From NCBI GenBank assembly GCA_046335555.1, contig JBKDHA010000186.1, positions 4,912-68,911 of the forward strand: a stretch of 64,000 nucleotides of DNA. Reading direction: 5' to 3'. The notes under the pieces were generated by a model. That model saw only the letters and a list, made by a program, of their open reading frames with translations. It ran no database searches and had not been told where the DNA came from. The stretch's first letter is position 1. Every line of letters begins with the position of its first letter. Positions 3,245-62,840 of the stretch are shown here, piece after piece. A program made the position numbers and the translations under genes. This DNA comes from Bacteroidota bacterium. GTDB lineage: Bacteria > Bacteroidota > Bacteroidia > Palsa-965.

Positions 3245-4918
3245 GTGATTGAAGCCTTACAAATAATTGTATGGTTTCTGTTTACTTCAACTTACAGTTT
3301 ATCTGATTGCAAGCCCATCCCAAGTTGGGAGCTGGGCAATGCTTTATTTAACGCGCTAACATCTGTGTCAAACGAACTGATCATTGATGCCTCCAATTCT
3401 GAGGTTGTGATCGCTCTTTTAAACGACAAGCGACTGGTGGAACTCAACCGTGAGAAAACCAACAGTCAGTTTGCTGTGGGCGACATTTACCTCGGCCGGG
3501 TGCGAAAAGTGATGCCAGGCTTGAATGCTGCGTTCGTTGATGTTGGTTACGAGAAAGATGCTTTCCTGCATTATTTTGACCTCGGTCCGCAGGTAATGTC
3601 GCTGAATAAATTTGTGCGGATGACCGTTACAGGACGGCAAAAGCACGCAGCACTTACCTATTTTAAGAACGAACCGGAGATTAATAAAGACGGCAAAATT
3701 GGTGATGTATTGCAACCCGATCAGCATGTGCTGATTCAGATTGCGAAAGAGCCTATTTCAACAAAAGGCCCTCGCATTACTTCCGAACTTTCGATTGCAG
3801 GGCGTTACATCGTGCTGATTCCTTTTTCCGAAAAAGTTTCTGTTTCACAGAAAATAAAAAGCAACGAAGAGCGCGAACGACTCAAGAGACTCATCATGAG
3901 TATCAAGCCGAAGAATTTCGGCGTTATCGTTCGTACTGTTGCCGAAGGAAAAGGAGTTGCCGATCTCGATGCCGACATGAATGACCTGGTGGGAAAATGG
4001 AACACCTGTTTCCAGGAACTCATCAAAGCCAAGCCTGCGCAGCGCGTGCTCGGCGAGATCAACCGTACATCTGCCATTTTGCGTGATATGCTGAACAATT
4101 CGTTCAATGCAATTCATGTGAACGACGGACAGATGCACGATGAGATCAAAATGTATTTACAGACGATTGCGCCTGACAAGGAAAAAATTCTGAAACAGCA
4201 CAAAGGGCCTCAGCCCATTTTTGAGCACTTCGGAATCGACCGTCAGATCAAAGCGCTTTTCGGTAAAACGGTGACCATGAAAAGTGGCGCCTACCTCATT
4301 ATTGAACATACCGAAGCCCTGCACGTTGTTGACGTGAACAGTGGCAACAGGTCGAAACTGCACAGCGACCAGGAGAGCAATGCGCTCGACGTAAACATGG
4401 AAGCTGCTTCAGAAATTGCACGTCAGCTTCGTTTGCGTGATATGGGCGGAATTATCGTGATCGATTTTATCGACATGCACTCGCCCAATAACCGCAAAGC
4501 ACTCTTTACCAAGCTGCGCGACGAAATGAAGGCCGACCGGGCCAAGCACACCATTCTGCCTCCGAGCAAATTCGGACTTGTGCAGATTACCCGCGAGCGT
4601 GTGCGCCCCGAAACCAACATTGAAACGGCCGAAAAATGCCCCACCTGCGGCGGCTCAGGACAGGTGCAGGCCAGCGTTCTGCTCATTGACCAGATTGAAA
4701 ATAATCTGCGCTATGTTCTCCGCGAACAAAATGAGAAAAAGGTTACGCTGCGTGTGCATCCTTACATTGCCGCATTTCTTACTAAAGGCTGGATTACCTC
4801 ACTGCGCTGGAAATGGATGCGTCGCTACCGTCGCCCGATCAGCGTGAAATCAGTTCCGTCGTACCAATTCCTCGAGTATCACTTCTTCAACGCTCAGGAC
4901 GACGAAATCAAAGTGTAA
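3245..4918 (+). CDS. rng: Ribonuclease E/G family protein (RNase G-like)
   Basis: S1 domain (GDIYLGRVRKVMPGLNAAFVDVGYEKDAFLH), catalytic DNase-I-like core (HVVDVNSG...IVIDFIDM) and a Zn-link (CPTCGGSG). The ATG at 3245 gives a long N-terminal extension. The true start is probably downstream, for example the in-frame GTG at about 3365 (VSNELIIDASNSEVVIALL). Confidence 0.85.
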   Translation: MIEALQIIVWFLFTSTYSLSDCKPIPSWELGNALFNALTSVSNELIIDASNSEVVIALLNDKRLVELNREKTNSQFAVGDIYLGRVRKVMPGLNAAFVDVGYEKDAFLHYFDLGPQVMSLNKFVRMTVTGRQKHAALTYFKNEPEINKDGKIGDVLQPDQHVLIQIAKEPISTKGPRITSELSIAGRYIVLIPFSEKVSVSQKIKSNEERERLKRLIMSIKPKNFGVIVRTVAEGKGVADLDADMNDLVGKWNTCFQELIKAKPAQRVLGEINRTSAILRDMLNNSFNAIHVNDGQMHDEIKMYLQTIAPDKEKILKQHKGPQPIFEHFGIDRQIKALFGKTVTMKSGAYLIIEHTEALHVVDVNSGNRSKLHSDQESNALDVNMEAASEIARQLRLRDMGGIIVIDFIDMHSPNNRKALFTKLRDEMKADRAKHTILPPSKFGLVQITRERVRPETNIETAEKCPTCGGSGQVQASVLLIDQIENNLRYVLREQNEKKVTLRVHPYIAAFLTKGWITSLRWKWMRRYRRPISVKSVPSYQFLEYHFFNAQDDEIKV

Positions 4919-5114: not shown

Positions 5115-6332
5115 ATGAAAAAATCTCCCGCTTCCCGAGATTCAGCAGTTTCAAAATCTTCAGCTCATGCAACGGTTCAATCGCCGCAAAAAACAGGAAA
5201 ATCTTTTTTTGCGGTTAGAGATTTTACTGTACATCGGCCCTCACCACAGGCACAGCAGCACACTCAAGAACAATCTGCTCCGATAAACGAATCGGTGCAG
5301 CCGCTACAGCGCATGAAGGTGGATGCCGAAGAAGGAATGGATGATAAACTAGGAACAAAAGATAGAATAAAGGTTTATCAGCTTATTACTATTATGAATT
5401 CTGCTGTGGCTAATCTTCTCAATAAAGAAGACAAGATCATTGTAGAGATAATAAACAATGGAGAAATGAGCCCGGCATGGAATCATCACAAGGGCACAAA
5501 AGAGCATCCGGGGCGGGTTGGCGATATTGGTGTGCAGTTAAACAGTTGGTACATCGAAAAAGCTTCTCTCGGCGAATTACTCGGAATGTTTGTGCATGAA
5601 ATTGGTGTGCATACTCTCGCCGACAGGCAAATGGGGAAGGAAAACCCAAACGAGAATCTGAAAAAGGATACAAATATTTACAGCGAAAGAGTTTCGCAGG
5701 GATACGACCACACACATCCCTCAGGGCACGAAATTGGGTACTATCCTACACCAGATGAAAAAAACAAAAAAGGAAGATCGCGCCAGGCCGATCATGTAAA
5801 TCTGGCCAAAAGTTTAGCGGGTTCTTCAAGCGAAAGAGGAAGATATTATATAGATACTTACTTGCGTACCGGCGATTCTATTTCGAAAAACATCAAAGAT
5901 CCGAAAGAGCGGGATGAGGCACTATTTGATCTTACCCGATATTTTCTTTTCGATATATCGCGCATTATTGCCACCAACGACGGGGCTCCGCTTGATATTC
6001 TCCGCAGCACAAAAAAAATCGGAGAACTGATGGAATATTACAAACATGAGCTGGCAGAAGATCACAAGGAAGAACATCCGTGGCTTGAAGAAACAGTGAT
6101 GAGTGTAAATACAAAGGCTTCGACCATTCAAAAATGGTTAGTGAGTCAGATGATAGCTATGGCTACGTCTTCCAATCCCGCTGTGCAAAAAGGACGAGCG
6201 GCATTAACAGGTCTTGGCGCAGCATATATAGTAGGAGGCGGTTTGGCAGGCATGATTTCGGCACCGGCACTACTTACAGGAATTGGTGTAGGCATTGGCG
6301 TATGGGGGCTGCAAAAACTATTTGGCGTGTAG
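5115..6332 (+). CDS. HExxH-motif protein (DUF4157-like putative metallopeptidase or toxin-like domain) with a C-terminal glycine-zipper membrane segment
   Basis: 405-aa ORF. The N-terminus is S/Q/P-rich and looks disordered. The central motif GELLGMFVHEIGVHTLADRQ places HExxH in a DUF4157-like context (LLAHELTHVVQ). The C-terminus GLGAAYIVGGGLAGMISAPALLTGIGVGIGVWGL is a Gly-zipper hydrophobic segment. No signal peptide and no T9SS C-terminal domain. Confidence 0.5.
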   Translation: MKKSPASRDSAVSKSSAHATVQSPQKTGKSFFAVRDFTVHRPSPQAQQHTQEQSAPINESVQPLQRMKVDAEEGMDDKLGTKDRIKVYQLITIMNSAVANLLNKEDKIIVEIINNGEMSPAWNHHKGTKEHPGRVGDIGVQLNSWYIEKASLGELLGMFVHEIGVHTLADRQMGKENPNENLKKDTNIYSERVSQGYDHTHPSGHEIGYYPTPDEKNKKGRSRQADHVNLAKSLAGSSSERGRYYIDTYLRTGDSISKNIKDPKERDEALFDLTRYFLFDISRIIATNDGAPLDILRSTKKIGELMEYYKHELAEDHKEEHPWLEETVMSVNTKASTIQKWLVSQMIAMATSSNPAVQKGRAALTGLGAAYIVGGGLAGMISAPALLTGIGVGIGVWGLQKLFGV

Positions 6333-6338
6333 TACAGA

Positions 6339-6388
6339 TCGAAACTGCACAGCGAGCAGAAAAGCAATGCGGACGAAATCAAAGTATA
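6339..6388 (+). pseudogene. Degenerate relic of the RNase E/G 3' coding sequence (in-frame fusion of two rng segments)
   Basis: 6339-6374 matches rng 4352-4387: tcgaaactgcacagcga is a 17/17 identity and agcaatgcg is 9/9. 6371-6388 matches the rng 3' end 4901-4918: gacgaaatcaaagt is 14/14, followed by TAA. The relic translates to SKLHSEQKSNADEIKV*, against SKLHSDQESNA...DEIKV* in rng. It is in the same frame as the upstream HExxH gene and immediately follows that gene's TAG stop. Confidence 0.6.
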
Positions 6389-16471: not shown

Positions 16472-16487
16472 TGCACTAAAACTAAAA

Positions 16488-16516
16488 CAGCGATGAACAA
16501 ACGCTGTTCATCGCTG
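16488..16516 (-). terminator. Intrinsic terminator on the minus strand (for the peptidase gene)
   Basis: Perfect 12-bp inverted repeat cagcgatgaaca / tgttcatcgctg around the loop aacgc. On the minus strand it is followed by TTTTAGTTTTAG. Confidence 0.55.
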
Positions 16517-16550
16517 TAAAATTATTCAATCAATATAATTAGGACATTTC

Positions 16551-16668
16551 TTAAAACTCAAAAGATTGAGGCGGGCGAAGGAGCGAAAACCGTCCCCGCA
16601 TTTGCTGCGGGGACTATAAATGAGGATTTTCGCGACGAGTCCAACGAAGAGATTTTGAGTTTTAAGAG
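16551..16668. repeat. ~120-bp nested-palindromic intergenic repeat, copy A (REP/MITE-like or structured-RNA element)
   Basis: ttaaaactcaaaagattgaggcgg...gcgaaaacc...[9-bp stem gtccccgca/tgcggggac]...aatgaggattttcg...agtccaacgaag.gattttgagttttaagag. The ends are conserved and form inverted repeats (aaaactcaaaa / ttttgagtttt). About 85-90% identical to a second copy at 62495-62612. Confidence 0.7.
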
Positions 16669-16675
16669 ATGTCCT

Positions 16676-18316
16676 TTATCGTTTCTCAACCTCCAGCACA
16701 ACAGCTACCCAACCTGCATCCGAAACCGGTTTCGTGAATTTCACATTTCCGCCCTCGCTGCTGAATGTTGTTGCAGCTGTTAGCTTTGCCCCCAGCGCTG
16801 CATTTATTTTATCGGCCAACGTTGCGCCTTTTGCAGCGCTGATTTGCTGGTTAACGGCTTTGTAGTCGATAGGCTCATTGGTAACCAGCACAGCCATTTC
16901 ATCCATTGTGCCAATATTATCGGGATACAACGTATGGTCTTTGGGGAATAGACGTTTGCCGGTTATACCGCAATAAGGCGAATGCTTTGGTGTGTAGGGA
17001 AAAAGCACATAGCTGGTTTTATCGGTTTCAAGTCCGATCAGATATGTATAGCATTCTGCATTATTCGTGAACTGAATTTTAAACGGTGTGCCTTTTTGAT
17101 CTTTCGACTGTCCTTTTACAACCGGGCTTGCAGTGCGGTAAACACCAACATTGCCCGATTTGCCGCGTGCTGTAAATGCAATTGCACTTTTTGTGCTTTG
17201 ATTTTCGAGACCGAAAAAACAATCGAGTGTTGTGGGTGCGGGTTTGCTCACAGCACCCATCGGATGCAGGCCGTAGGCTTCAACTACAAAGTAGTCGAAA
17301 TCGTTGTAGCGCACCCAGCAAACACCATCTTTGCCCCATTCATTTCCCCAGGAATTCATGATCTGAAATGCGCCGCCTTTCATGTAATCATCATATCCGA
17401 TCACGCACATCGCATGACCGCCAAACTCATTTTTAAAAGCGGCATCAAAATCTGATTTTTCGGGAAACCAAACATCTTTGCCTTCCATATTGCGCATAAA
17501 CGTTCCGCCAACGCGCATACCAATAACTACCGGTGCGCCCTGTGCAAGATTTTGTTTGATGGCCAGCATGTTTACGCGGTAATCATCATCACCGCCGCTG
17601 CCGTCGTTTTTCGACAACCGTGATGCGCCTTTAATTTTATATTTTGCAGCAGCATTGAACTCTGAATCCGAAGGCTCGTTTGAGCAGGTATTTTCATCAT
17701 ACGGAAACTGCGAAAGCGGAAGTCCGCCGCGTTGCTGCATCGCTTCCATTGCCTGCTGCAAATAAGCGCCCTGACAGTTTTCGAGTGCAATCTGACTGTA
17801 TAAAAACGAAGGGCTGAAACGAATTTGCTTCGGATCTTGTCCGGTAGCGCGGCTCTGCAAAATGGTGCGCGCTGCATACGAACTGGCCCAGGCCACGCAC
17901 GAACCCTGCTTGCCCTGATTGAGCCGCGGCGGAGCAAACTCAAGCAAAGAAACCCGCTCGGGCAGCGGATCTTTTACATTATCGGCAAGCGGCTCGTAAA
18001 CAGGTGCCTGATCGTACACCTCGCGCTTCATGTCACAGCCTTTGCTGTATGAAGAGGAATTGGCTGTGCTGTTGCCGGGCAAACTGCAGCTTTTACCGCT
18101 GAAAAACCAGAATGCCACAAGCGCAACAACTACCAGAATACCTATTTTCGGATTCCGGAACAGAAACCGAATGAGCTGCGGCAAAAACATGAGCAGTATT
18201 CCTAACCCGCCAAAACCGCCGCCGCCGCCACCACCGCCGCGGTTAAAACCGGGACGGTTTCCGGGATTGAAATTTGAACCGTTGTCGTTGTCGTCCTGAT
18301 CAATTCTGATAGGCAT
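16676..18316 (-). CDS. C1-family (papain-like) cysteine peptidase with a Gly-rich N-terminus and transmembrane anchor
   Basis: Catalytic Cys context QGKQGSCVAWASSYA and His context GGHAMCVIGYDD. The N-terminus has a poly-Gly run (GGGGGGGGFGG) followed by a transmembrane helix. A C-terminal beta-rich domain follows the peptidase core. Confidence 0.75.
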   Translation of the reverse strand: MPIRIDQDDNDNGSNFNPGNRPGFNRGGGGGGGGFGGLGILLMFLPQLIRFLFRNPKIGILVVVALVAFWFFSGKSCSLPGNSTANSSSYSKGCDMKREVYDQAPVYEPLADNVKDPLPERVSLLEFAPPRLNQGKQGSCVAWASSYAARTILQSRATGQDPKQIRFSPSFLYSQIALENCQGAYLQQAMEAMQQRGGLPLSQFPYDENTCSNEPSDSEFNAAAKYKIKGASRLSKNDGSGGDDDYRVNMLAIKQNLAQGAPVVIGMRVGGTFMRNMEGKDVWFPEKSDFDAAFKNEFGGHAMCVIGYDDYMKGGAFQIMNSWGNEWGKDGVCWVRYNDFDYFVVEAYGLHPMGAVSKPAPTTLDCFFGLENQSTKSAIAFTARGKSGNVGVYRTASPVVKGQSKDQKGTPFKIQFTNNAECYTYLIGLETDKTSYVLFPYTPKHSPYCGITGKRLFPKDHTLYPDNIGTMDEMAVLVTNEPIDYKAVNQQISAAKGATLADKINAALGAKLTAATTFSSEGGNVKFTKPVSDAGWVAVVLEVEKR

Positions 18317-21669: not shown

Positions 21670-22722
21670 ATGGCTATTTTCACAACAGCAAACGTTCGTA
21701 TCGCAGGCATTTCTGCCGCAGTTCCTGCGCGTTCAGAAAGCAATCTCGATTACGACAAGCTTACCGAAGCTGAACGCAAGCTGCTTGTGAAAACTACAGG
21801 CATCCTGCACCGCCGCATCGCTGCAAAAGATCAAACTCTTACCGACATCGGCGAAGTTGCAGGCAACAAACTCATCGACCAGCTTGGCTGGGATCGCAGC
21901 GAAATTGATTTGTTGGTGCTTGTTACACAATCGCGCGATTACATTTTGCCTTCATCAGCTGTACTTCTTCAACACCGACTTTCACTTCCGCACACCTGTG
22001 CTGCTTTCGATCTCGGACTCGGATGCAGCGGATATGTATATGCGCTTTCGGTTGCAACTGCAATGATGCAGAACGGAGGATTTCGCAAAGGCATCGTTAT
22101 TGCCGGTGATATTTCAACTTCGGGCACCAGCGAACACGACAAAAGCACATACCCGCTTTTTGGTGATGCCGTTACTGCAACCGCTCTCGAATACAAGTCA
22201 GGAGCCGAAGCAATACACTACAACCTGCAGAGCGACGGAAGCGGTGCCAATTCAATAATTATTCCCGACGGCGGTTTGCGCAAGCAGCTTGAACCCGAAT
22301 CGTACATCATGCACGAATACGAACCGGGCATTATCCGCTCGCGCAAACATCTCTGGCTGAACGGACTTGATGTCTTCAACTTCTCAGTGCGTGAAGCGCC
22401 GGCAAATATTCAGCAGCTTTGTGCAAGTGCAAACATTGCTCCCGACGCGCATGACTTTTTTGTGATGCATCAGGCCAATTTGCTGATGAATGAAACCATC
22501 CGGAAAAAGCTAAAATATCCGGCCGAAAAAACGCCCTACTCACTCAACGATTTTGGAAATACAAGCTCTGCCTCTATTCCAATTACTATTGTAAGTCAAT
22601 GCGCTGCAGCAGCCGAAAAACCGCAACGCTGGCTGCTTTCGGGCTTTGGTGTTGGACTAAGCTGGGCCAGCATGAGTATAAAAACCGATGGTTTTGTTTG
22701 TATGCCTGTGATTGAAGTTTAA
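21670..22722 (+). CDS. 3-oxoacyl-ACP synthase III (FabH-like ketosynthase)
   Basis: Cys-His-Asn triad contexts AAFDLGLGCSGYVYAL, FFVMHQANLLMNE and NDFGNTSSASIP. 350 aa. Confidence 0.8.
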   Translation: MAIFTTANVRIAGISAAVPARSESNLDYDKLTEAERKLLVKTTGILHRRIAAKDQTLTDIGEVAGNKLIDQLGWDRSEIDLLVLVTQSRDYILPSSAVLLQHRLSLPHTCAAFDLGLGCSGYVYALSVATAMMQNGGFRKGIVIAGDISTSGTSEHDKSTYPLFGDAVTATALEYKSGAEAIHYNLQSDGSGANSIIIPDGGLRKQLEPESYIMHEYEPGIIRSRKHLWLNGLDVFNFSVREAPANIQQLCASANIAPDAHDFFVMHQANLLMNETIRKKLKYPAEKTPYSLNDFGNTSSASIPITIVSQCAAAAEKPQRWLLSGFGVGLSWASMSIKTDGFVCMPVIEV

Positions 22723-22732
22723 ACGAACCGCA

Positions 22733-23737
22733 ATGCCAGCACGTCTCTCCTATTTTACGTATCATTTGCCGGAACAGGTTTATACCAATGCCGACTTCGC
22801 GCTCGATTTTCCGGAAGCTAAAATGAGCAGTCTCGAAAAAACAGGCGTGCGAAAACGACATATTACACCAAAAGGACAAACCTCATCAGACCTTGCTGTT
22901 CTTGCCGCTGAACGGTTATTTACCGAAAATAATATTGATCGAAACAGTATTGATTTTATCATTTACTGTTCCTTTGATTTGGATTATCATCTGCCCTCAA
23001 CAGCATGCTTGATTCAGCACAGGTTAGGACTGCCTTCACATTGCGGAGCTTTTGACATGGGCTTGGGCTGCAGTGCTTATGTTTACGGCATTGCCACAGC
23101 GGCATCATTGCTTGAAACACTTCAGCTTAAAAATATATTACTGCTCACAGCTTCTTCACTCACACATCAAATACACGAGCGCGACCGAGGGAATCGTTTT
23201 TTGTTTGGTGATGCGGCATCAGCTTCGCTTGTTACGCGCACTGAAAAAGCGTCGATTGGCTCATTTGTTTTTGGTACCGACGGCAGCGGCGGCAATCAAA
23301 TCATTGTTCCGCACGGAGGAATGCGTACACCGCTGCAGGAGGATTCGTTTACAGAATCAACTGATGAATTCGGCAACACAACAGCACCTGCTAATTTTTA
23401 TATGGACGGCATCGGGATTTTCAGGTTTACAGTGGGTGTTGTTCCTAAACTTGTGAACGATGTGCTTACCAAAGCCGCACTAACAAACGATGATATAGAT
23501 CTGTTCGTGTTTCATCAGCCCAATGTTTTCCTGAATGAAATGCTGCGCAAGAAACTAAATATCCCGGCCGAAAAATTTATACACGCAATGGCTGATACCG
23601 GAAATACAGTTCAGGCAACAATTCCGATTGCATTAACTGAGGCGCTGAAAGAAGGTAAACTTAAACCGGGCATGAAAGTACTGCTAGCCGGATTTGGCGT
23701 TGGTTTAAGCTGGGGCGGTTGTATTATTGACTATTAA
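22733..23737 (+). CDS. Second FabH-like 3-oxoacyl-ACP synthase III
   Basis: Triad contexts GAFDMGLGCSAYVYGI, LFVFHQPNVFLNE and ADTGNTVQATIP. ATG 22733 (MPARLSYFTYHLPEQV) is the likely start. The alternative ATG at 22712 would overlap the first KAS gene by 11 nt. Confidence 0.8.
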   Translation: MPARLSYFTYHLPEQVYTNADFALDFPEAKMSSLEKTGVRKRHITPKGQTSSDLAVLAAERLFTENNIDRNSIDFIIYCSFDLDYHLPSTACLIQHRLGLPSHCGAFDMGLGCSAYVYGIATAASLLETLQLKNILLLTASSLTHQIHERDRGNRFLFGDAASASLVTRTEKASIGSFVFGTDGSGGNQIIVPHGGMRTPLQEDSFTESTDEFGNTTAPANFYMDGIGIFRFTVGVVPKLVNDVLTKAALTNDDIDLFVFHQPNVFLNEMLRKKLNIPAEKFIHAMADTGNTVQATIPIALTEALKEGKLKPGMKVLLAGFGVGLSWGGCIIDY

Positions 23738-32701: not shown

Positions 32702-35105
32702 ATGATCAAACAAATCTTCATCATCGGCTGTATTCTGTATGCCACATTGGGCTTTCAGCCACTTCCTGCTCAGGAAGCCGACAAACTAAATACAGGTTAT
32801 TTCCCCGGATTCCCCGACCGCCCCGCAAGTCACAATTTTCAGCATTACTCGGGTGCTGATATGCGCGAGTTATGGAGTACCGCATCAACTGGTGAACAGC
32901 GTACAATGTCACTGTCAATGTGGAAATACATAGGTCCGGATAATGCGAATAACCTATGCGGAGCTGGTCGTGTAAACTGTGTAGCTGTTGATCCGCTCGA
33001 CAGCAATTCAATTTGGCTGGGTTCTGCAAGCGGTGGTTTGTGGAAGAGCACTAATGGCGGCCAATCATGGACTCCGACTTCTGATTTGTTTGCATCGCTG
33101 GGTGTAACCAAAGTACAGTATGATCCGCTCAACGCACAAACCATTTATCTCGCCACAGGCGATGCAAACGGTGGCGATGCCTATTCATTTGGTTTGTTAA
33201 AGAGTACAGACGGAGGTGCAACGTGGGATTCTACTGCACTTTCATTCACTCTTCAGGCCAATGAATACATCCGTGATTTTTCATTACATCCGTCACTTGC
33301 CGGAAATATTGTAGTAATTACTAACCGGTATATTTACCGCTCAATTGATGGCGGAACAACATTTACACCGTCTCTCAGCGGCGATTTTTACAGTGTGGCG
33401 CGTGACTTGCAAAATGCATCTGTATTGTATGTGACTTCATATCCTGATCAGAATTATTCCTATGCGCGCATTCGTGTGAGCACAAACAATGGTGCAAGCT
33501 GGAGCTTTTGCGATTCGGGATTGCCGGCAACTTATTTCAAAATAAAACTTGCTGTAACACAGGCTCAGTCAACATCATTGTTTGCAGCCGGTATTAAACT
33601 TGGTACCGATTCGATGAATTTAATCGAGACTCCTGATGGAGGGCAAAACTGGTTTACATCGCCTTATCATAATATCGGACAACAAACCTGGTTTAATCTG
33701 TATTTTGATGTTTCGCAGAGTCTTCCACTTCGTTTTTATTTCGGTGCAGTTTGGAGTTGGAAATCAACCGACGCTGGCTTAACATGGAATACAATGTCGC
33801 AATGGGCTCCTGTGCATTGTGATCACCACGGTATTCTGCAAACCGGCAACGGACGTTTTTTTGATTGCAATGATGGCGGAATCTGGAAAACTGCCGACGA
33901 TGGTAATACATGGACCAGTTTGAACAATAATCTGGGTGCGCTGCAATTTTACAGGATGAATGTATGCAAAACTGATACTGCAGTTATTGGCGCCGGTGCA
34001 CAAGATAATTGCTATGTGGTAAAAAGTCAGGGAACCGGAAACAACTGGCATTCTGATGTAGGGGGCGATATTATGGAAGTGCTTATTGATCCTGTTGTTT
34101 CAAATAATCATTATGTGATGGGAATTGGAGGCGCTATGGCTGCATCATCAACCGGTGGTGCAAACTGGTATGGGATACCGGCTCAGTCTAGTCCGCTGCC
34201 GGTCGGGTAATTGGATCACTCCTTTTGCTATTAATCCGCAAAATACGCGCTCATTTATTGCCGGTTTTGCCGAAGTCTGGAAGTCGTATGATGCCTGTAT
34301 GAACTGGGTGCCGATTTCGTCCAACCTGAACAACGGAAATAATCTGAGCTGCATAGCTTTTGCACCTTCCGACAGCAATGTGATTTATGCTGCCGACTAC
34401 AATCGTTTTTATGCTACTTACAATTCGGGACAAAACTGGCAAAACTATTCATCAGTGCTTCCTGCAGGAGTTCCCGTTCACCGGGTTTTTGTACATCCGC
34501 AGCAGCCAATGGAAGTATGGATTGTATGCGGCGGCTTTCAGTCGGGAAGCAAAGTGTATAAATCGGTAAACGGCGGTGTTTCGTGGACTAATCTTTCTGC
34601 CGGATTACCGAATATTCAGTTAAACTGCGGTGTGTTGACTGGAGATGGTGAGAACACTGTCTTTCTGGGTTCGGCAGCCGGCATGTATATGAAAAACGAT
34701 TCATTGGCCGGATGGACTAAGTTGCAGAATGGTTTTCCCAATGCCAATGTATCGGATCTTGAATATGTGGATGCATTCCGGACGGTATTTTGTTCCACCT
34801 ATGGACGGGGAATGTGGAAGTTTGAGTTGCCACCGGTTACCACCGGAGTATTGATGCCCGATGCCGTTACACCGGTTACTGTTTTCCCTTCTCCCGCCAG
34901 CGATTTTGTTCAGGTACATTTCACAAATGCGCTTTCGCAACCTGTGCGATTAGCTGTGTTTGATGCCTACGGAAAGCTGGTTCAAACGCAATCTCTTAGT
35001 CAGTCTGTCCGCTTAGACACTTCATTGTGGTCTTCGGGACTTTACTTTTTTCAGTTCGAAACCGGTGGCACTACATACACGAAACGTGTGGCTGTTTCAC
35101 ACTGA
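32702..35105 (+). pseudogene. BNR/sialidase-like beta-propeller glycosidase-type protein with a T9SS C-terminal domain, frame-disrupted at about 34169-34214
   Basis: Two overlapping ORFs (32669-34210 and 34125-35105) in different frames encode a single protein. BNR/propeller motifs (S.DGG.TW) run throughout. The C-terminal T9SS domain is VFPSPASDFVQVHF...GLYFFQFETGGTTYTKRVAV. The signal peptide starts at ATG 32702. A 46-nt segment (34169-34214), flanked by aactgg/aattgg, separates GGANW from ITPFAINP and shifts the frame. Confidence 0.6.
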
Positions 35106-35163: not shown

Positions 35164-35232
35164 CCCTCAAAAAAAATAAATAAACCTTCAAGGTTTCTTA
35201 AACCTTGAAGGTTTATTTATTTTTTTTGAGGG
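35164..35232. terminator. Very long perfect hairpin (about 29-bp arms), a bidirectional terminator
   Basis: ccctcaaaaaaaataaataaaccttcaagg / ccttgaaggtttatttattttttttgaggg. Lies between convergent genes and is A/T-run rich on both sides. Confidence 0.6.
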
Positions 35233-35338: not shown

Positions 35339-36268
35339 TTAGCGGGGTTGCTCGGCAGGAGTTGCGGGAGCCTGATTGTTTTCGGGCTGCGGTTGCTGCG
35401 CCGGAATTTCCTGCGGTGCCGGTGTATTATTTTGTGTGCTGTCGGCTTTTTGTTCTTCAATTATTTGTTCGCCGGTTTCACGTTTTCCGTTTTTCTCGGC
35501 TTCCGCTTTTTCTTTTGCAGCTTGTTCCTCGGCAGCGCTGTTGTACATATTTCGTTTGTCAACTCCGCCGCCGATGTAATCTTTGGTGGTTACAATAATG
35601 GCGCCGCCTGAGAGATCGCCGTACTCGGCCGGAATGCCGCCGGAAAGCACTGTAATCTGACCAATTGCAAGCCCCGGAACAGATGACGAGCCGTAAATTT
35701 TTTCACCATCTACAAACATCTGCGATTGACCCGGGCGTGAACCACGCATGACTAAACCGCCTGAAGGTGTCTGACTGCATGATGAACAGGTATTGGTAAT
35801 CATGCCGGTTATATCACCGCGGCTTACGGCCATTACTTTAATTTGTTCTGCAGTAATGTTGGTGATGGTTGAATACTCTTTATCAACCGGACTTTTTACA
35901 TATTCAGCATAAATAATAACTTCTTTGCAAGTATCACAGGTTTTAAGCTGCATCGGATAGCTGAGGTAAGCTGTTTGTCCGGCACTAACTACAACGCCGC
36001 GTTTTACATAAGCTTTGTAGCCTACCATGCGGGCTTCTACTTCATAAGTCCCGGCAGAAACTGCGCGGAGATTAACTACCCCGTCCATATCGGTAGCCCC
36101 GCCGATATTTGTGCCTACAATGCGCACTACAGCGCCGGGCAGCGGACGTTTATCAATATCAAGAACAGTGGCTTTAATAGTGCCGGAACCATCGGCCTGT
36201 GCATTGAGCAGTGCAGCAAACAGAAAAGCCGGAAGCAAGAGGGCGAAACGGAGGAGGCGGGTTTTCAT
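35339..36268 (-). CDS. Carboxypeptidase-regulatory-like domain / TonB-dependent-receptor plug-domain protein with a low-complexity C-terminal tail
   Basis: Signal peptide MKTRLLRFALLLPAFLFAALLNAQ. CarbopepD_reg-like segment (GTIKATVLDIDKRPLPGAVVRIVGTNIGGATDMDGVVNL). Plug-like segment. A/E/K/Q/P-rich tail. Confidence 0.6.
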   Translation of the reverse strand: MKTRLLRFALLLPAFLFAALLNAQADGSGTIKATVLDIDKRPLPGAVVRIVGTNIGGATDMDGVVNLRAVSAGTYEVEARMVGYKAYVKRGVVVSAGQTAYLSYPMQLKTCDTCKEVIIYAEYVKSPVDKEYSTITNITAEQIKVMAVSRGDITGMITNTCSSCSQTPSGGLVMRGSRPGQSQMFVDGEKIYGSSSVPGLAIGQITVLSGGIPAEYGDLSGGAIIVTTKDYIGGGVDKRNMYNSAAEEQAAKEKAEAEKNGKRETGEQIIEEQKADSTQNNTPAPQEIPAQQPQPENNQAPATPAEQPR

Positions 36269-36435
36269 AACAATTGATGTTTTAAAGGATGTGTATTTAA
36301 TCTTTAAGAGCGGCTCACATCTTAAAAACGCATTGCTTCCCGTTTTTCCACACGGCAAAAGGAAGTTTATCTAAAACTGGTTGATTAATCTGCTTAATTG
36401 GCGGCCTTAATTGGTTAATTGGCCTCAGAATGATA

Positions 36436-52062: not shown

Positions 52063-52569
52063 TTGTATTTTAGCACTGTGAACACATCGCCCGAAAAGAA
52101 GATAACAGATCCTGCTGAAGCTTTAACCAAAGCTCAACGCTGGTGCGCCTATCAGGAACGCAGCCAGCAGGAAGTGCGCGATAAATTGTACAGCTGGGGA
52201 TTGTGGGCAGAAGCTATAGAGAATATTATTGCTGAACTGATCAGTACAAACTTCATCAGTGAAGAACGTTTTGCAGAAGCTTTTGTGAGCGGAAAATTCC
52301 GCATCAAACAATGGGGACGCATAAAAATTAAAATCGAACTGAAACAGCACCGCATCAGTGAACCCGTTATTCGTAAAGCACTTGCTGTTATTGACGGAGA
52401 TGAATATATGCGCGTGCTCAGAAAACAAGCCGAGAAAAAAGCGAAAACCGAAAAAGAAAAACATCCGCAGAAACGACAGTATAAATTAATCCGCTATCTG
52501 ATGTCGCGCGGTTTTGAACAGGATCTTGTGCGCGAAGTGCTTGGCGAATTAATGAGTGAACAAGAATGA
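52063..52569 (+). CDS. recX: RecX-family regulatory protein
   Basis: 168-aa three-repeat helical pattern with the conserved ...RWCAYQERSQQEVRDKL... / ...LMSRGFEQDLVREVL... segments. Confidence 0.7.
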   Translation: MYFSTVNTSPEKKITDPAEALTKAQRWCAYQERSQQEVRDKLYSWGLWAEAIENIIAELISTNFISEERFAEAFVSGKFRIKQWGRIKIKIELKQHRISEPVIRKALAVIDGDEYMRVLRKQAEKKAKTEKEKHPQKRQYKLIRYLMSRGFEQDLVREVLGELMSEQE

Positions 52570-53144
52570 CAAAAGCCGAACGTATTAAGCGCATATTTGA
52601 TCCGTACTATTCCGCTCCGGTTGAAGTTTGGGAAGTTTTCGCGGCATTACTTCAACACAGAAAATTCCGAAAGAATGAAATTCTGAAAGAAAGTCACTCC
52701 AAAGAATCATTCCTGAATATTATTATCAATGGCTCGGCCGGATTATTCCTTGACAAAAGCAGTCATGCAATTTGTCTTGATCTTTGCTACGAAGAAGAAT
52801 TTTTCTGTGATTATATGTCGTTCCTCACGCAATCGTCAACACCATTATACACACAAGCGCTCGAATCATTAGAAGTACTTTCGATCTCGCATACATCGCT
52901 GGAAAAACTTTATACCGAATCGCCGTTTGGTGTTCAAATCGGCCGTGTTGCTGCTGAGTCTTTATTTATTCATAAGCAAAATCAGCAGGTAGAATTACTG
53001 ACATTAACAGCTGAAGAGCGCTACCGGCAGTTGTTGCAGAAGCAACCAGAAATTATCAGGCGCACGCCATCTAAGCACATTGCGTCTTATCTCGGTATTA
53101 CTCCCGAAAGTTTAAGCAGGATCAGAAAAACTATTCATTCCTGA
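52566..53144 (+). CDS. Crp/Fnr-family transcriptional regulator
   Basis: N-terminal cNMP-binding-like beta-roll plus a C-terminal HTH (RTPSKHIASYLGITPESLSRIRK). The ATGA start overlaps recX. Confidence 0.75.
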   Translation: MTKAERIKRIFDPYYSAPVEVWEVFAALLQHRKFRKNEILKESHSKESFLNIIINGSAGLFLDKSSHAICLDLCYEEEFFCDYMSFLTQSSTPLYTQALESLEVLSISHTSLEKLYTESPFGVQIGRVAAESLFIHKQNQQVELLTLTAEERYRQLLQKQPEIIRRTPSKHIASYLGITPESLSRIRKTIHS

Positions 53145-53148
53145 TACT

Positions 53149-53313
53149 AAGAGCCTGTTTAAAAATCATCCTTTGGCTTTGTCATGGCATATTTTTCCTC
53201 ATCCTGCGTTGCATTTTTTGTCGATCCTCTCCCAGGATCGCCTTCAAAATGCGCCTTGTCTGAAAAAAAATCTACTCATAACAAACCTCAAAAACGAATT
53301 TTAAACAGGCTCT
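53149..53313. repeat. ~165-bp element bounded by perfect 15-16-bp terminal inverted repeats (MITE-like or long stem)
   Basis: agagcctgtttaaaa at 53150-53164 and ttttaaacaggctct at 53299-53313 are exact reverse complements. Between them lie 133 bp of A/T-rich non-coding sequence. Sits between convergent genes. Confidence 0.45.
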
Positions 53314-53339
53314 GATATTCTGATGATAAACACGCGCAA

Positions 53340-53846: not shown

Positions 53847-53927
53847 GGTGCAAAGGTAAGCATGTGCTCAGTTTGAATTATAACAAGCGCAAAGAATAAT
53901 GTATATTAGTAGTAAAATTTAAAGTTT

Positions 53928-54116
53928 ATGAAAGGTGTTAGTTTTATCATCGATGAAAAAAACAGAAAAAAGTCTGTTGTAATAGATATTAGTGTACTTA
54001 AAAAGCGGGAAGAGGAAATTTATGAACTAATTGATTCATTAATTGCGGAATCTCGTATCGGAGGTGAAACGATGGAGTGGACTACTGCTAAAAAACAACT
54101 GCTCAATAAGAAGTAA
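53928..54116 (+). CDS. Putative type II antitoxin
   Basis: 62-aa ORF whose TAA overlaps the ATG of the RelE-like gene (TAATG), the classic toxin-antitoxin arrangement. Confidence 0.5.
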   Translation: MKGVSFIIDEKNRKKSVVIDISVLKKREEEIYELIDSLIAESRIGGETMEWTTAKKQLLNKK

Positions 54117-54379
54117 TGAATTACCAAATTAATATTGACAAACGGGCATTCAAAGAACTCTCCGAATTAAATGCAAAGGACAAAAAAAAGATTATTGATC
54201 TGATTGATAATTTATCAGAAAATCCGCGCCCTGCCGGATGTAAGAAACTTCAAGGACAAAAAAAGAATATGTGGCGTGTTAGATCCGGCGATCTATCGGA
54301 TTATTTATACAATTGAAGATAATATACTTACTATTACAGTAATTAAAATTGGGCACCGCAGAGAAATCTATAATAGGTA
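54116..54379 (+). pseudogene. RelE/ParE-family type II toxin gene carrying a 1-nt frameshift
   Basis: MNYQINIDKRAFKELSELNAKDKKKIIDLIDNLSENPRPAGCKKLQGQKKNMWRVRSGD, then a +1 shift gives YRIIYTIEDNILTITVIKIGHRREIYNR*. Read together, this is the canonical RelE/ParE C-terminus GDYRIIY...IGHRR.IY. An extra c at about 54296 (ggcgat[c]tatcgg) breaks the frame. Confidence 0.7.
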
Positions 54380-54389
54380 AACAATATAC

Positions 54390-55151
54390 CTACATTTTCC
54401 GCAACTGCTCACGGAACGATTTCAGGAACTTCGTAGCGTAAACAAAATCCGACAACTCTTTAACATCGGCAGTCAAAATTTCGTGACGGTTGCCTTCCCA
54501 AAGTTTTGCGCCTTTGTGCAGAAATGCAATTTTATCGCCAATCTCCAGCACCGAATTCATATCATGTGTAATGACAATAGTTGTCATCTTATACTCTTCG
54601 GTAATTTCCTGAATCAGCTCATCAATGCGGATAGCTGTTAGCGGATCAAGGCCGGAGTTCGGCTCGTCGCAAAACAGGTAACGTGGTTTAAGTGAAATGG
54701 CGCGGGCAATGGCTACGCGCTTTTTCATGCCTCCGCTGATTTCAGCAGGATACAGTTTTGCCGATTGCGGAAGGTTAACGCGTTCCAAACAAAACATAAC
54801 ACGGTCGCGCTTCTCGGCTTCAGTCATCGTTGTAAACAGATTGAGCGGAAACATTACATTCTCCTCAACTGTCATAGAATCGAAAAGCGCACCGCCCTGA
54901 AACAGCATGCCTATTTGCTGACGCACATCTTTGCGCGCCTCAAAATCCATCTTCAAAAAATCTTTCCCGTCGTAAAGTACTTCACCGGTTTCGGGTGTAA
55001 TCAAACCTACCATGCACTTTGAAAGCACCGATTTACCGGTTCCGCTTTCGCCAATAATCAGGTTCGATTTGCCTTCTTCAAACGTGAATGAAAAGTCGCG
55101 CAACACAACTTTCTCACCAAATGCTTTGCTCAGATTCTTTACTTCGATCAT
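54390..55151 (-). CDS. ABC transporter ATP-binding protein (MlaF-like)
   Basis: Walker A GESGTGKS, ABC signature ISGGMKKRVAIARA and Walker B LFCDEP. Translationally coupled to the upstream permease gene. Confidence 0.85.
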   Translation of the reverse strand: MIEVKNLSKAFGEKVVLRDFSFTFEEGKSNLIIGESGTGKSVLSKCMVGLITPETGEVLYDGKDFLKMDFEARKDVRQQIGMLFQGGALFDSMTVEENVMFPLNLFTTMTEAEKRDRVMFCLERVNLPQSAKLYPAEISGGMKKRVAIARAISLKPRYLFCDEPNSGLDPLTAIRIDELIQEITEEYKMTTIVITHDMNSVLEIGDKIAFLHKGAKLWEGNRHEILTADVKELSDFVYATKFLKSFREQLRKM

Positions 55152-58840: not shown

Positions 58841-61800
58841 TTACTGTCCGTGACAGTTTTTATACTTCTTCCCAGATCCGCAGGGGCAAGGATCATTGCG
58901 CCCTACTTTGGGATCTTGCCGCACTACCTGCTGCACAACGGGCTGTTGACGTTGCTGCGGTATTCCGTTTTCGCCTTGCTGAACGGGTTGCTGTTGCTGC
59001 TGCTGCGGTGCGGCTCCAACTTCTTCGCGGGTGGTTTGAAGTTTGGGCTGGGGCTGCTGACGCGGCGGTGCATTGCGCAACTGCTGTTCCTGAATAACAT
59101 CGGCATCGCCTTTCGGTACATCACCGTGAAACAAGAACGAAACAATTTCGCGGTTCGTTTCGCCGGCCATGCGTTTGAACAGATCAAACGACTCGAACTT
59201 GTAGATCAGCAGCGGGTCTTTCTGTTCGTAAACGGCATTCTGAACGCTTTGTTTCAGATCGTCCATTTCACGCAGATGCTCTTTCCACGCATCATCAATC
59301 ATGGAAAGAATAGTGCCTTTCTCGAATGTAGAAACCAGCTCGCGGCCTTGTGTTTCGTAACATTTTTTAAGATTGGCAACAGCGTGCATTGTCTTTATTC
59401 CATCAGTAACCGGGGTTACAATGTTTTCGTACTGTGCAGCTTGTGTTTCATAAACATTCTTTACCACAGGCCAGAACTGCTGCGCCATGCGAGCCGATTT
59501 CTGACGATAGTGATCGAGAATTGTGGTGTACAGTTTATCAGAAATCTCACCGGGTTTCATGGCACTGAATTCATCAGGGCGTACCGGCGATTCGATGCCG
59601 AACAAGCGGAGACAGTCAATTTCAAACTGACTGAAGTTTTGTGATTCGCTGGTTTCTGTGGCAATGTTTTCGCAAACATCATGCACCATGTTTGCAATGT
59701 CGAGCTGAAGACGTTCGCCAAACAAGGCATTGCGGCGGCGTTTGTAAATCACCTCGCGCTGTGCATTCATCACATCATCATACTCGATCAACCGCTTACG
59801 TGTGCCGAAGTGGTTTTCTTCCACTTTCTTCTGCGCACGCTCAATCGACTTGGTAATCATGCTGTGCTGAATTACTTCGCCTTCTTTCAAACCCATGCGA
59901 TCCATCATGCGGGCAATGCGGTCGGAACCGAAAAGACGCATGAGATCATCTTCAAGCGAAACGAAGAACTGCGAAGTACCTGTATCGCCCTGACGACCGG
60001 CGCGACCACGCAGCTGGCGGTCAACGCGGCGGCTTTCGTGGCGCTCCGTACCGATAATGGCCAAACCACCGGCTTCGCGCACACCGGGTCCGAGCTTGAT
60101 GTCGGTACCGCGACCGGCCATGTTGGTGGCAATGGTAACTGTGCCGGGCAAACCTGCTTCGGCAACAATATCGGCTTCGCGCTGGTGCTGCTTGGCGTTA
60201 AGTACGTTGTGCTTGATATTGCGGAGTTTGAGCATACGGCTCAGCAATTCCGAAATTTCTACCGATGTTGTACCCACCAGTATCGGACGGCCATCGGCAA
60301 CGCATTTTACAATTTCGTCGATAACCGCATTGTACTTTTCGCGCTTGGTCTTGTAAACAAGATCCTCGCGATCCTGACGTATAATTGCTCTGTTGGTGGG
60401 AATGGTAACTACATCAAGTTTGTAGATCGTCCAGAATTCCTGTGCTTCCGTTTCGGCTGTACCGGTCATGCCGGCCAGCTTGTGATACATACGGAAATAG
60501 TTCTGCAATGTAACGGTAGCGTAGGTTTGTGTAGCCGCTTCTACTTTTACATTTTCTTTTGATTCGATAGCTTGGTGCAGACCGTCTGAATAACGGCGGC
60601 CATCAAGAATACGGCCGGTTTGTTCATCTACAATCTGAACTTTTCCGTTCATTACCACATACTCAACATCTTTCTCAAACAGACAGTAGGCTTTGAGCAA
60701 CTGCTGCATGGAGTGAACACGTTCAGATTTTATGTTGTAATCGCGGATAAAATCTTCTTTGGCAATGAGGCGTTCTTTTTCGTCGGTATGCTTGCGTTCG
60801 AGTTCTACGAGTTCGGCTGCAAGATCAGGAAGGACAAAGAAGTGCTGATCTTCAATATTTTTGGAGATCAGATCAATGCCTTTTTCGGACAGCTCAATGG
60901 TATTGTGTTTTTCATCAATCACGAAAAACAGTTCGGCATCTACCTTGTGCATTTCGCGCTGCTGATCCTGCATGTAGAAGTTTTCTGTTTTCTGCAGCAG
61001 GGCTTTCACACCTTGTTCACTGAGGAACTTGATGAGTGCTTTGTTTTTCGGAAGTCCACGGTAGCAGCGCAATACGGCCATTCCGGCTTCCTTCTCTTTT
61101 TCTTTGTTGTTCTGACTTTCGGTGAACAGTTTTTTTGCGTCGGCCAGAATGGTGTTGATGTAAGAGCGCTGTGCGTTTACCAATATTTCAACACGCGGCT
61201 TCAGCTCGTGAAACATGTGGTTATCGCCTTTGGGTGTTGGGCCTGCAATAATGAGCGGTGTACGCGCATCATCAATAAGCACCGAGTCAACCTCATCCAC
61301 AATAGCATAGTGGTGTTTGCGCTGCACAAGTTCTTCGGGTGTGCGCGACATATTATCACGCAGATAATCGAAGCCGAACTCGTTGTTGGTACCGTAAGTA
61401 ATATCAGCCAAATAAGCCTGGCGGCGCGGCAGTGAGTTCGACTCGTGCATGTCGATGCAGTCAACCGTAAGGCCGAGGAACTCAAACAGCGGTCCGTTCC
61501 ATTCGGAGTCGCGGCGGGCGAGGTAGTTGTTAACGGTAACAACGTGTACGCCTCGTCCGGCAAGGGCATTGAGGTAAACCGGCAATGTAGCCACAAGGGT
61601 TTTACCTTCGCCGGTTGCCATTTCAGCAATTTTACCCTGATGCAGTACTGTACCGCCGATAAGCTGTACATCATAATGCACCATGTTCCATTTCACTTCA
61701 TTTCCGGCGGCAATCCAACTGTTTTTCCAGATGGCTTTATCGCCTTCGATGCGGATATGCGGACGTTTTACGGCCAGATTGCGGTCGTGCTCGGTAGCAG

Positions 61801-62203
61801 TAACCGTAAGTTCTTCGTTCTCTGCCAGGCGGCGTGATGTTTCTTTTACCACGGCAAATGCTTCGGGCAGAATTTCGAGCAGTACCTCCTCAATTTTCTT
61901 GAGGACAGTTTTCTCAATACTGTCGGCCTCCGCAAAGAGGCGTTCCTGATCGTCGATTGGAGTTTCGGGGTTTTCGGCTTGCAGTTTGAGGGCAAGGATT
62001 TCGCCTTCTTCTTTGCTTATGTATTCGCTGATGCGTTTACGGAACTCATCGGTTTTGGCGCGGAGCTCATCAATAGAGAGAGCACGCAGTTTATCACCAA
62101 ACGCGAGGGTTTCATTTACATAAGGCATAACCTCCTTCACATCGCGCTCAGATTTTGAGCCGCCGAGGAGTTTTGAAATACTTTTTACGATGCTATCGAA
62201 CAT
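58841..62203 (-). CDS. secA: Preprotein translocase ATPase SecA
   Basis: 1120 aa with DEAD-like motor motifs and a C-terminal zinc finger ([14 protein letters not shown]). Confidence 0.97.
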
Positions 62204-62400: not shown

Positions 62401-62433
62401 AAAACAAACCGGGGAAACCGATATGGTTTCCCC
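62401..62433 (-). terminator. Intrinsic terminator on the minus strand
   Basis: Perfect stem ggggaaacc / ggtttcccc around the loop gatat. On the minus strand it is followed by TTTGTTTT. Confidence 0.5.
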
Positions 62434-62494
62434 GATGTACCGCTTCTGCGGTGAAGTGTGTTCAATAAATGGCTGCCAGAACTCGGGGTATCTA

Positions 62495-62612
62495 TTAAAA
62501 CTCAAAAGATTGAGGCGGACGCAGAAGCGAAAACCACACCCTCAGTATTGCGGGGAGTGTAAATGAGGATTTTCGTAACTAGTCCAACGAAGATATTTTG
62601 AGTTTTCAGAGA
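62495..62612. repeat. ~120-bp nested-palindromic intergenic repeat, copy B
   Basis: Matches copy A (16551-16668) with near-identical ends and a divergent central hairpin. Confidence 0.7.
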
Positions 62613-62618
62613 TTTCCC

Positions 62619-62840
62619 TCAGTACTCGTCTTCATTGAAGAAGAAGTCTTCCTTGGTAGGATAGTCGGGCCAGATCTCCTCAATGGTTTCATAGGCCTCG
62701 CCTTCATCTTCAATTTCCTGCAAGTTTTCGATTACTTCCATCGGAGCGCCGGAGCGGATGGCATAGTCGATGAGTTCTTCTTTCGTAGCCGGCCAGGGTG
62801 CATCTTCAAGGTAGGAAGCAAGTTCAAGGGTCCAATACAT
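62619..62840 (-). CDS. DUF2795-like small acidic protein
   Basis: 73 aa. The YLEDAPWPATKEELIDYAIRSGAPMEVIENL pattern resembles DUF2795. Confidence 0.5.
   Translation of the reverse strand: MYWTLELASYLEDAPWPATKEELIDYAIRSGAPMEVIENLQEIEDEGEAYETIEEIWPDYPTKEDFFFNEDEY

Follow-up and report, generated by a model that had tools for sequence, protein, structure and literature searches.

What is the palindromic repeat that occurs twice in a 64-kb stretch of DNA (the window, analysed here at its full length), and why does it lie precisely between the stop codon of a gene and the terminator of that gene? A sequence-only reading had pointed to two copies of about 120 bp, and both were recovered where it had placed them (16551-16668, copy A; 62495-62612, copy B). 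They share the same orientation, as had been described, and each starts right after a stop codon, with a terminator-like hairpin and T-run beyond it. The repeat is thus real, but its length had been underestimated: when the limits were set by comparison with empty sites, the element measured 134 nt in copy A and 133 nt in copy B. The internal pair gcgaaaacc/ggattttcgc and the central hairpin were found as noted before. A conserved 22-mer and a conserved 25-mer from the ends each occurred twice in the window and in none of 100 dinucleotide-preserving shuffles. The centre is divergent, as had been reported, whereas the 85-90% identity given for the ends compares with an overall value of 82% across the elements and 85% across 120 nt in a BLAST alignment. 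A distance of 46 kb separates copies A and B, which lie next to unrelated housekeeping genes and have no flanking sequence in common. By convention, the 5' end of the element is the gene-adjoining end on the minus strand (Table 1).

Table 1. Positions in the window of copies A and B, their parts and the adjoining host features. TIR, terminal inverted repeat; TSD, 3-bp target duplication.
Feature	Position	Strand	Basis or remark
Copy A, 134 nt	16542..16675	-	L157 and L158 lack it at the orthologous site; TIR; hairpin fold
Peptidase C1 stop codon TAA, the target triplet and first TSD copy of A	16676..16678	-	Empty/filled site comparison
Second TSD copy of A, TAA on the minus strand	16539..16541	-	Site comparison
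Gene-proximal TIR of A, AGGACATCTCTTAAAACTCAAAA on the minus strand	16653..16675	-	Inverted-repeat pair
Gene-distal TIR of A	16541..16563	-	Inverted-repeat pair
Central 9-bp G+C-rich hairpin of A, then GGTTTTCG	16592..16614	-	Varies between copies
Intrinsic terminator native to the peptidase C1 gene (stem of 14 bp, T-run)	16487..16517	-	The host's, not the element's
Peptidase C1 gene, whose stop codon is the target of insertion A	16676..18316	-	
Copy B, 133 nt, oriented as A	62486..62618	-	
DUF2795 stop codon TGA, first TSD copy of B	62619..62621	-	L007 and L102 read TGA [element] TGA
Decayed second TSD copy of B	62483..62485	-	CGA in the window, TGA in L007 and L102
Native intrinsic terminator, after DUF2795 and before secA	62408..62436	-	
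DUF2795 gene, whose stop codon adjoins copy B	62619..62840	-	

Relatives of the window were found by exact-protein look-ups, which returned same-species and sister-strain contigs that were 100%, ~97%, 94-97%, and 89-92% identical to the window. Copy A was missing from the orthologous site in L157 (a 136-kb contig that is otherwise 94-97% identical to the window) and also in L158 (a ~100-kb contig, 89-92% identical). In both of these contigs, the peptidase stop codon stands directly before TTTATTTGAG..., which is followed by the same terminator as in the window, whereas the window reads CGA TAA, 134 nt of element, and TAA TTATATTG... at this place. The empty site is therefore CGA TAA TTTATTT and the filled site CGA TAA [element] TAA TTATATT. 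On insertion, copy A duplicated the 3 bp of the stop codon TAA perfectly. At the empty sites in L157 and L158, the same terminator hairpin lies 24 nt past the stop codon, indicating that the terminator is older than the element.

Further copies were present at two other loci, C and D, which excludes a local duplication, a possibility that had been raised for the pair in the window. Copy C lies ~115 nt past the window end, inside a 238-aa gene that it truncates in L102, L106, and L107; L104, with 100% identity to the window, has an empty site and an intact gene. The sequence is TTGAAT GAGG TTAGG at the empty site and TTGAAT GAGG [element] GAGG TGAGG at the filled one, and in the register that fits all copies, the duplication is a 3-bp CTC/CTC. 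A reading of this duplication as TGA was rejected because it needs an extra 5-nt deletion, compared with one substitution for GAG/CTC. The orientation of copy C is opposite to that of the disrupted gene. Copy C belongs to a diverged subfamily, yet it was recently inserted. Copy D, found in L117, L159, and L160, immediately follows the ssb stop codon TAA, ~270 nt before the window start, and its site is empty in L126. It is flanked by TAA and TGA, an imperfect duplication, and its outer repeat has decayed. In L125, only the first seven bases of the element are kept at this locus, and they look like a remnant.

Locus B was occupied in all four strain types, and L007 and L102 carry a TGA/TGA duplication around the copy. 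Strain differences at this locus are much greater in the centre than in the flanks, as seen in the orthologous copies of L007, L102, and L004. In the last of these, from a strain 89-92% identical to the window, the orthologue of window positions 62486-62618 is a 73-nt internal-deletion form (L004, 3223-3295), in which the 3' interior has been deleted between two AATC microhomologies and the remainder is a perfect 24-bp hairpin. Two 5'-arm positions of this form differ from all long forms and thereby pair with the retained 3' arm, which looks like a template-switch (quasi-palindrome) correction. Taken over the four loci, the duplication length was 3 bp at every insertion, and the triplet was of the TNA type at three of them (TAA, TGA, and TAA) and CTC at copy C. 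Perfect duplications occurred with three kinds of triplet (TAA, TGA, and CTC), the imperfect case being copy D. These comparisons show that insertion was recent and is polymorphic among strains with 89-97% identity.

The anatomy of the element was then compared across copies. The terminal inverted repeats that had been described at the ends are present but longer than noted, reaching 23 nt in copy A (96% complementarity) and 26 nt in copy B (81%). TIRs were also seen in copies C and D, and the inverted repeats extend to the very ends of the element. The copies range from 122 to 134 nt, with a TIR of ~23 bp and the consensus 5'-(N)GGNNATCTCTNAAAACTCAAAA. In gene orientation, every copy begins with the 3-bp duplication, N-GG-NN-ATCTCT-N-AAAACTCAAAA, and the interior, and continues after the interior with TTTTGAGTTTT-N-AGAGAT-NN-CC and the second 3-bp duplication. 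The interior contains two conserved but non-complementary 7-nt bulges, a short helix, a helix of 8-9 bp (CGAAAATCC/GGTTTTCG), and a variable apical hairpin. Although pairwise identity among the six full-length sequences was 63-94% and the sequence of the apical hairpin varied, the four-helix architecture was common to all six.

The element is close to a palindrome over its full length, and folding predicted one long imperfect hairpin for both A and B, in agreement with the sequence-only reading. Against shuffled controls, the fold on the gene strand reached -48.4 kcal/mol for copy A (z -7.2) and -32.6 kcal/mol for copy B (z -2.8), and on the plus strand -59.8 kcal/mol (z -8.0) and -38.4 kcal/mol (z -4.5), respectively. 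The central hairpin of copy A is terminator-like on the gene strand only. There was no conserved ORF in the element; six-frame translations differ between copies and contain stops, and a coding or read-through peptide was rejected because the frames are not conserved. A sigma-70-type promoter within the element was likewise rejected, the one weak match (9/12) straddling the element edge.

In a covariation test, which had been proposed as a check of the structure, three compensatory pairs were found in three helices, but the alignment comprised 5-6 sequences and 29 of 500 shuffles reached the same count. The compensatory columns lie in copy C (20/116, 36/101, and 45/91), and copy D shows complementary changes on both arms (CTCATAAAAC/GTTTTATGAG). 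In the same 5-6 sequences, 93% of cells were paired, compared with 34-55% in slid-partner controls. Compensatory changes in internal stems could point to selection on structure, but with 5-6 sequences they are only suggestive. Matching of transposon ends, together with quasi-palindrome template-switch correction, would give the same pairing pattern without any RNA function, and the perfect hairpin in L004 points to template-switch correction as its source.

The combination of TIRs, a fixed 3-bp duplication, empty sites, and no coding capacity argues for a MITE moved in trans by a DDE transposase. We put the probability at about 85% that the ~134-bp palindromic repeats are copies of a non-coding MITE that has recently inserted in an uncultured freshwater Bacteroidota lineage. 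A MITE-like element had been among the earlier suggestions, and it was borne out by the TIRs, the 3-bp TSDs, the filled and empty sites in close relatives, the extra loci, and the lack of an Rfam family. In the Rfam search, the whole window gave 0 matches at the gathering score, and the region of copy A gave only chance-level matches at E values up to 10. The repeat represents a new family, but selfish DNA of this kind is well known, and the system is not of a new type.

The DDE transposase would be encoded elsewhere in the genome and would most likely be an IS5-family, IS1031-like enzyme. No transposase or IS with matching TIRs was found in the sequence sampled, and a Pfam search found no transposase in the 64-kb window. 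The IS1031 group of the IS5 family prefers 5'-TNA-3' and produces an exclusive 3-bp direct repeat (PMC12016507). The terminal repeat of ISLrh is given as GAACCTGTCTAGTATCT in the same source, and the element end GGACATCTCTTAAAACT matches it at 10 of 17 positions in an ungapped comparison. The likeness in sequence may be taken as a lead, not as proof. In several respects, the element is like MITEs of the IS5 family and IS1031 group: it has 3-bp repeats, TNA triplets in three of four cases, a TIR of ~17-23 bp, no coding capacity, and presence/absence polymorphism. It differs from them in starting with GG rather than with the GAG/GAA of ISLrh and of another element in the window (53151-53312) and in one insertion at a non-TNA target (CTC). 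The insertion signature most resembles that of IS5/IS1031-type derivatives.

The element at 53151-53312 is a second, unrelated MITE-like sequence (162 bp). Its inverted ends measure 37 nt (GAGCCTGTTTAAAAATC...), and it has an IS1031-like end, GAGCCTGT. Its flanking triplets are of the TNA type (TAA at 53148-53150 and TGA at 53313-53315), and it sits 3 nt past the TGA stop of the gene at 52566-53144. L109 and L110 lack it and have one TGA at the corresponding site, and contigs L111 and L113 end inside it. Its IS1031-like end and TNA flanks suggest that IS1031-like transposition occurs in this lineage.

With regard to the position of the repeat, the duplicated triplet was a gene's stop codon in three of the four independent insertions (TAA, TGA, and TAA). 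Because the stop triplet is duplicated on insertion, the stop codon is regenerated and stays intact, while the element ends up in the 3' untranslated region and the original terminator is shifted ~135 nt downstream. This position is best explained by insertion into the stop triplet itself (TAA/TGA), with the existing terminator displaced downstream. The location of copy C inside a coding gene indicates that the stop-codon/terminator position is not an absolute rule. TNA covers two of the three stop codons, and the short stop-to-terminator spacer is dispensable, so that a TNA preference and selection together can account for the placement. According to this model, purifying selection would remove disruptive insertions, and the spacer would be one of the few places where insertion is harmless. 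Read-through into the element would add a long stable hairpin to the 3' end of the mRNA, presumably as a side effect.

A plain TNA preference does not fully explain the choice of the stop triplet or the shared orientation. Other TNA triplets (counted by eye, ~2-3 per site, within ~25 nt) lie near all three stop-codon insertions, yet the stop was used each time, and all three insertions have one orientation relative to the gene. It is conceivable, though unlikely, that the element is targeted to stop codons in one orientation or is retained as a portable 3'-end mRNA module. This reading draws on the three of three intergenic insertions at a stop triplet, their same orientation, the nearby TNA triplets, and the kept four-helix architecture.

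A related explanation is that the repeat, possibly a MITE in origin, has become a domesticated 3'-UTR module, in which the hairpin or the central terminator-like stem stabilizes, processes, or terminates the upstream mRNA; it would then be comparable to REP sequences or to Correia elements, which RNase III cleaves. The placement and common orientation of three of four copies, the architecture kept in six of six full-length sequences despite apical differences, the paired fraction of 93% with compensatory pairs in three helices, the strand-specific terminator-like hairpin of copy A, and the return of the L004 deletion form to a perfect 24-bp hairpin would all agree with such a role. Against it, the gene does not need copy A, because 97%-identical relatives have the same gene and terminator but lack the copy. 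The native terminator is kept downstream of both window copies, and copy C disrupts a gene to which it is oriented in reverse. The pairing evidence comes from 5-6 sequences, with the observed number of compensatory pairs reached in 29 of 500 shuffles, and template-switch self-correction and end matching yield the same pattern without RNA function. We therefore consider domestication improbable.

The MITE reading was further weighed against explanations that involve other kinds of palindrome. A REP/REPIN-like or IS200/IS605-derived palindrome, moved as single-stranded DNA by a Y1 transposase (RAYT or TnpA), would also be a dispersed extragenic palindrome near terminators, and a REP/BIME-like nature had been suggested for the repeat. 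This suggestion found no support. Such elements insert without a TSD, RAYT-dependent mobility leaving no duplication, whereas perfect 3-bp duplications of TAA, TGA, and CTC are present here; they carry subterminal hairpins, whereas the inverted repeats lie at the very ends here; and REP units are far shorter (20-40 nt, compared with 134 nt, a three- to fivefold difference). No RAYT was found in the 64-kb window. Movement by a Y1 enzyme is thus very improbable. Even less credence can be given to a local or segmental duplication or to an integron attC or similar folded site of recombination. In favour of these readings, the window contains only two copies, and attC sites too follow stop codons and have a variable centre. 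But the copies are 46 kb apart among housekeeping genes with unrelated flanks, copies exist at two further loci, TSDs are present, no cassette array is seen, the window encodes no integrase, and the ends TTAAAAC...GTTTTAA do not fit the RYYYAAC/GTTRRRY boxes. Copy C and the filled and empty sites of copy A refute both the duplication and the attC explanation.

Among known repeats, the Correia elements of Neisseria (CREE/NEMIS) are ~100-155 bp long with terminal repeats of ~26 bp, occur in long and short forms through internal deletion, and are co-transcribed with neighbouring genes as long hairpins. The present element also has long and short forms, here of 134 nt and 73 nt, and its size, nested palindromy, and long/short forms most resemble those of Correia elements. 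In contrast, the target duplicated by Correia elements is TA, these elements contain IHF and promoter motifs, and neither their sequence nor their host phylum is related. ERIC sequences are ~127 bp long. The ERIC/IRU and REP/BIME repeats of enterobacteria are similar in being imperfect palindromes that lie in transcribed intergenic DNA close to the 3' ends of genes; the element is unlike them in its clear TIRs, 3-bp duplications, and recent insertion polymorphism, and shares no sequence similarity with them. A MITE of Porphyromonas gingivalis, also a member of the Bacteroidota, is described as a non-autonomous inverted-repeat element that contains a minisatellite (PMC4596501). It shares the phylum but not the host, and the minisatellite reported there has no counterpart here.

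The distribution of the family was examined at several scales. The strain of the window carries loci A, B, and D within ~65 kb, and the fourth locus, C, was found in a relative. Nine short-read contigs, which come from several samples, end inside a copy (L012, L013, L095, L097, L104, L105, L106, L117, and L159). These ends fit a dispersed repeat, although strain heterogeneity or poor coverage of the hairpin could also cause them. A genome-wide copy number would be an extrapolation because the four known loci all come from ~200 kb of sampled sequence. There was no match to plasmids and phages by blastn or to genome contigs in an exact-pattern scan, and a scan of metagenome contigs returned one chance match, inside a coding repeat (L014). 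In viral contigs, the 3' motif was not found and a 15-base motif gave 28 chance matches. No copies were present in 8 × 20 kb (~160 kb) taken from the HU locus of contigs ~77% identical to the window. The element was also found at none of 80 SecA loci from GTDB species representatives, where relatives were at most 68% identical among the matches listed. Within this sampling, the family looks confined to this species group. The secA gene itself (window 58841-62203) has its best match at 68% SecA identity among the GTDB species-representative matches listed.

The main value of these results lies in the annotation and population genomics of a poorly sampled, uncultured freshwater Bacteroidota lineage. 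The family marks recent transposition, with insertions that differ between 97%-identical strains. It breaks short-read assemblies and can truncate genes, as copy C does. Genes such as ssb, DUF2795, and the C1 peptidase gene acquire with it a 3'-UTR hairpin of about -35 to -56 kcal/mol on the gene strand. It also illustrates clearly how a transposon that prefers TNA targets comes to be inserted at stop codons and yet leaves them intact. A new principle would be involved only if the bias towards stop codons and towards one orientation turned out to be directed or adaptive.

Several other features of the window were recorded. Next to the MlaE/ABC-ATPase pair, a small islet at ~53850-54390 varies between strains (compared with L109, L110, and L111-L114): two small ORFs (66 and 62 aa) are present in the window type, L114 carries a ParE-toxin gene and a 62-aa ORF, and L109 and L110 carry a BD-FAE hydrolase of 405-408 aa. 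At 35164-35232, between the convergent genes at 34125-35105 (+) and 35339-36358 (-), two arms of 33 nt (CCCTCAAAAAAAATAAATAAACCTTCAAGGTTT and its complement) and a loop of 3 nt form a perfect palindrome; it is unusually long and perfect for a bidirectional terminator. A 43-nt direct repeat with 86% identity occurs at 4347-4389, inside an RNase E/G gene (3245-4918), and at 6334-6376, just after an ORF (5115-6332). Finally, two tandem paralogous KAS III (FabH-like) genes (21670-22722 and 22712-23737) account for a 72-nt direct repeat at 22459-22530 and 23504-23575.
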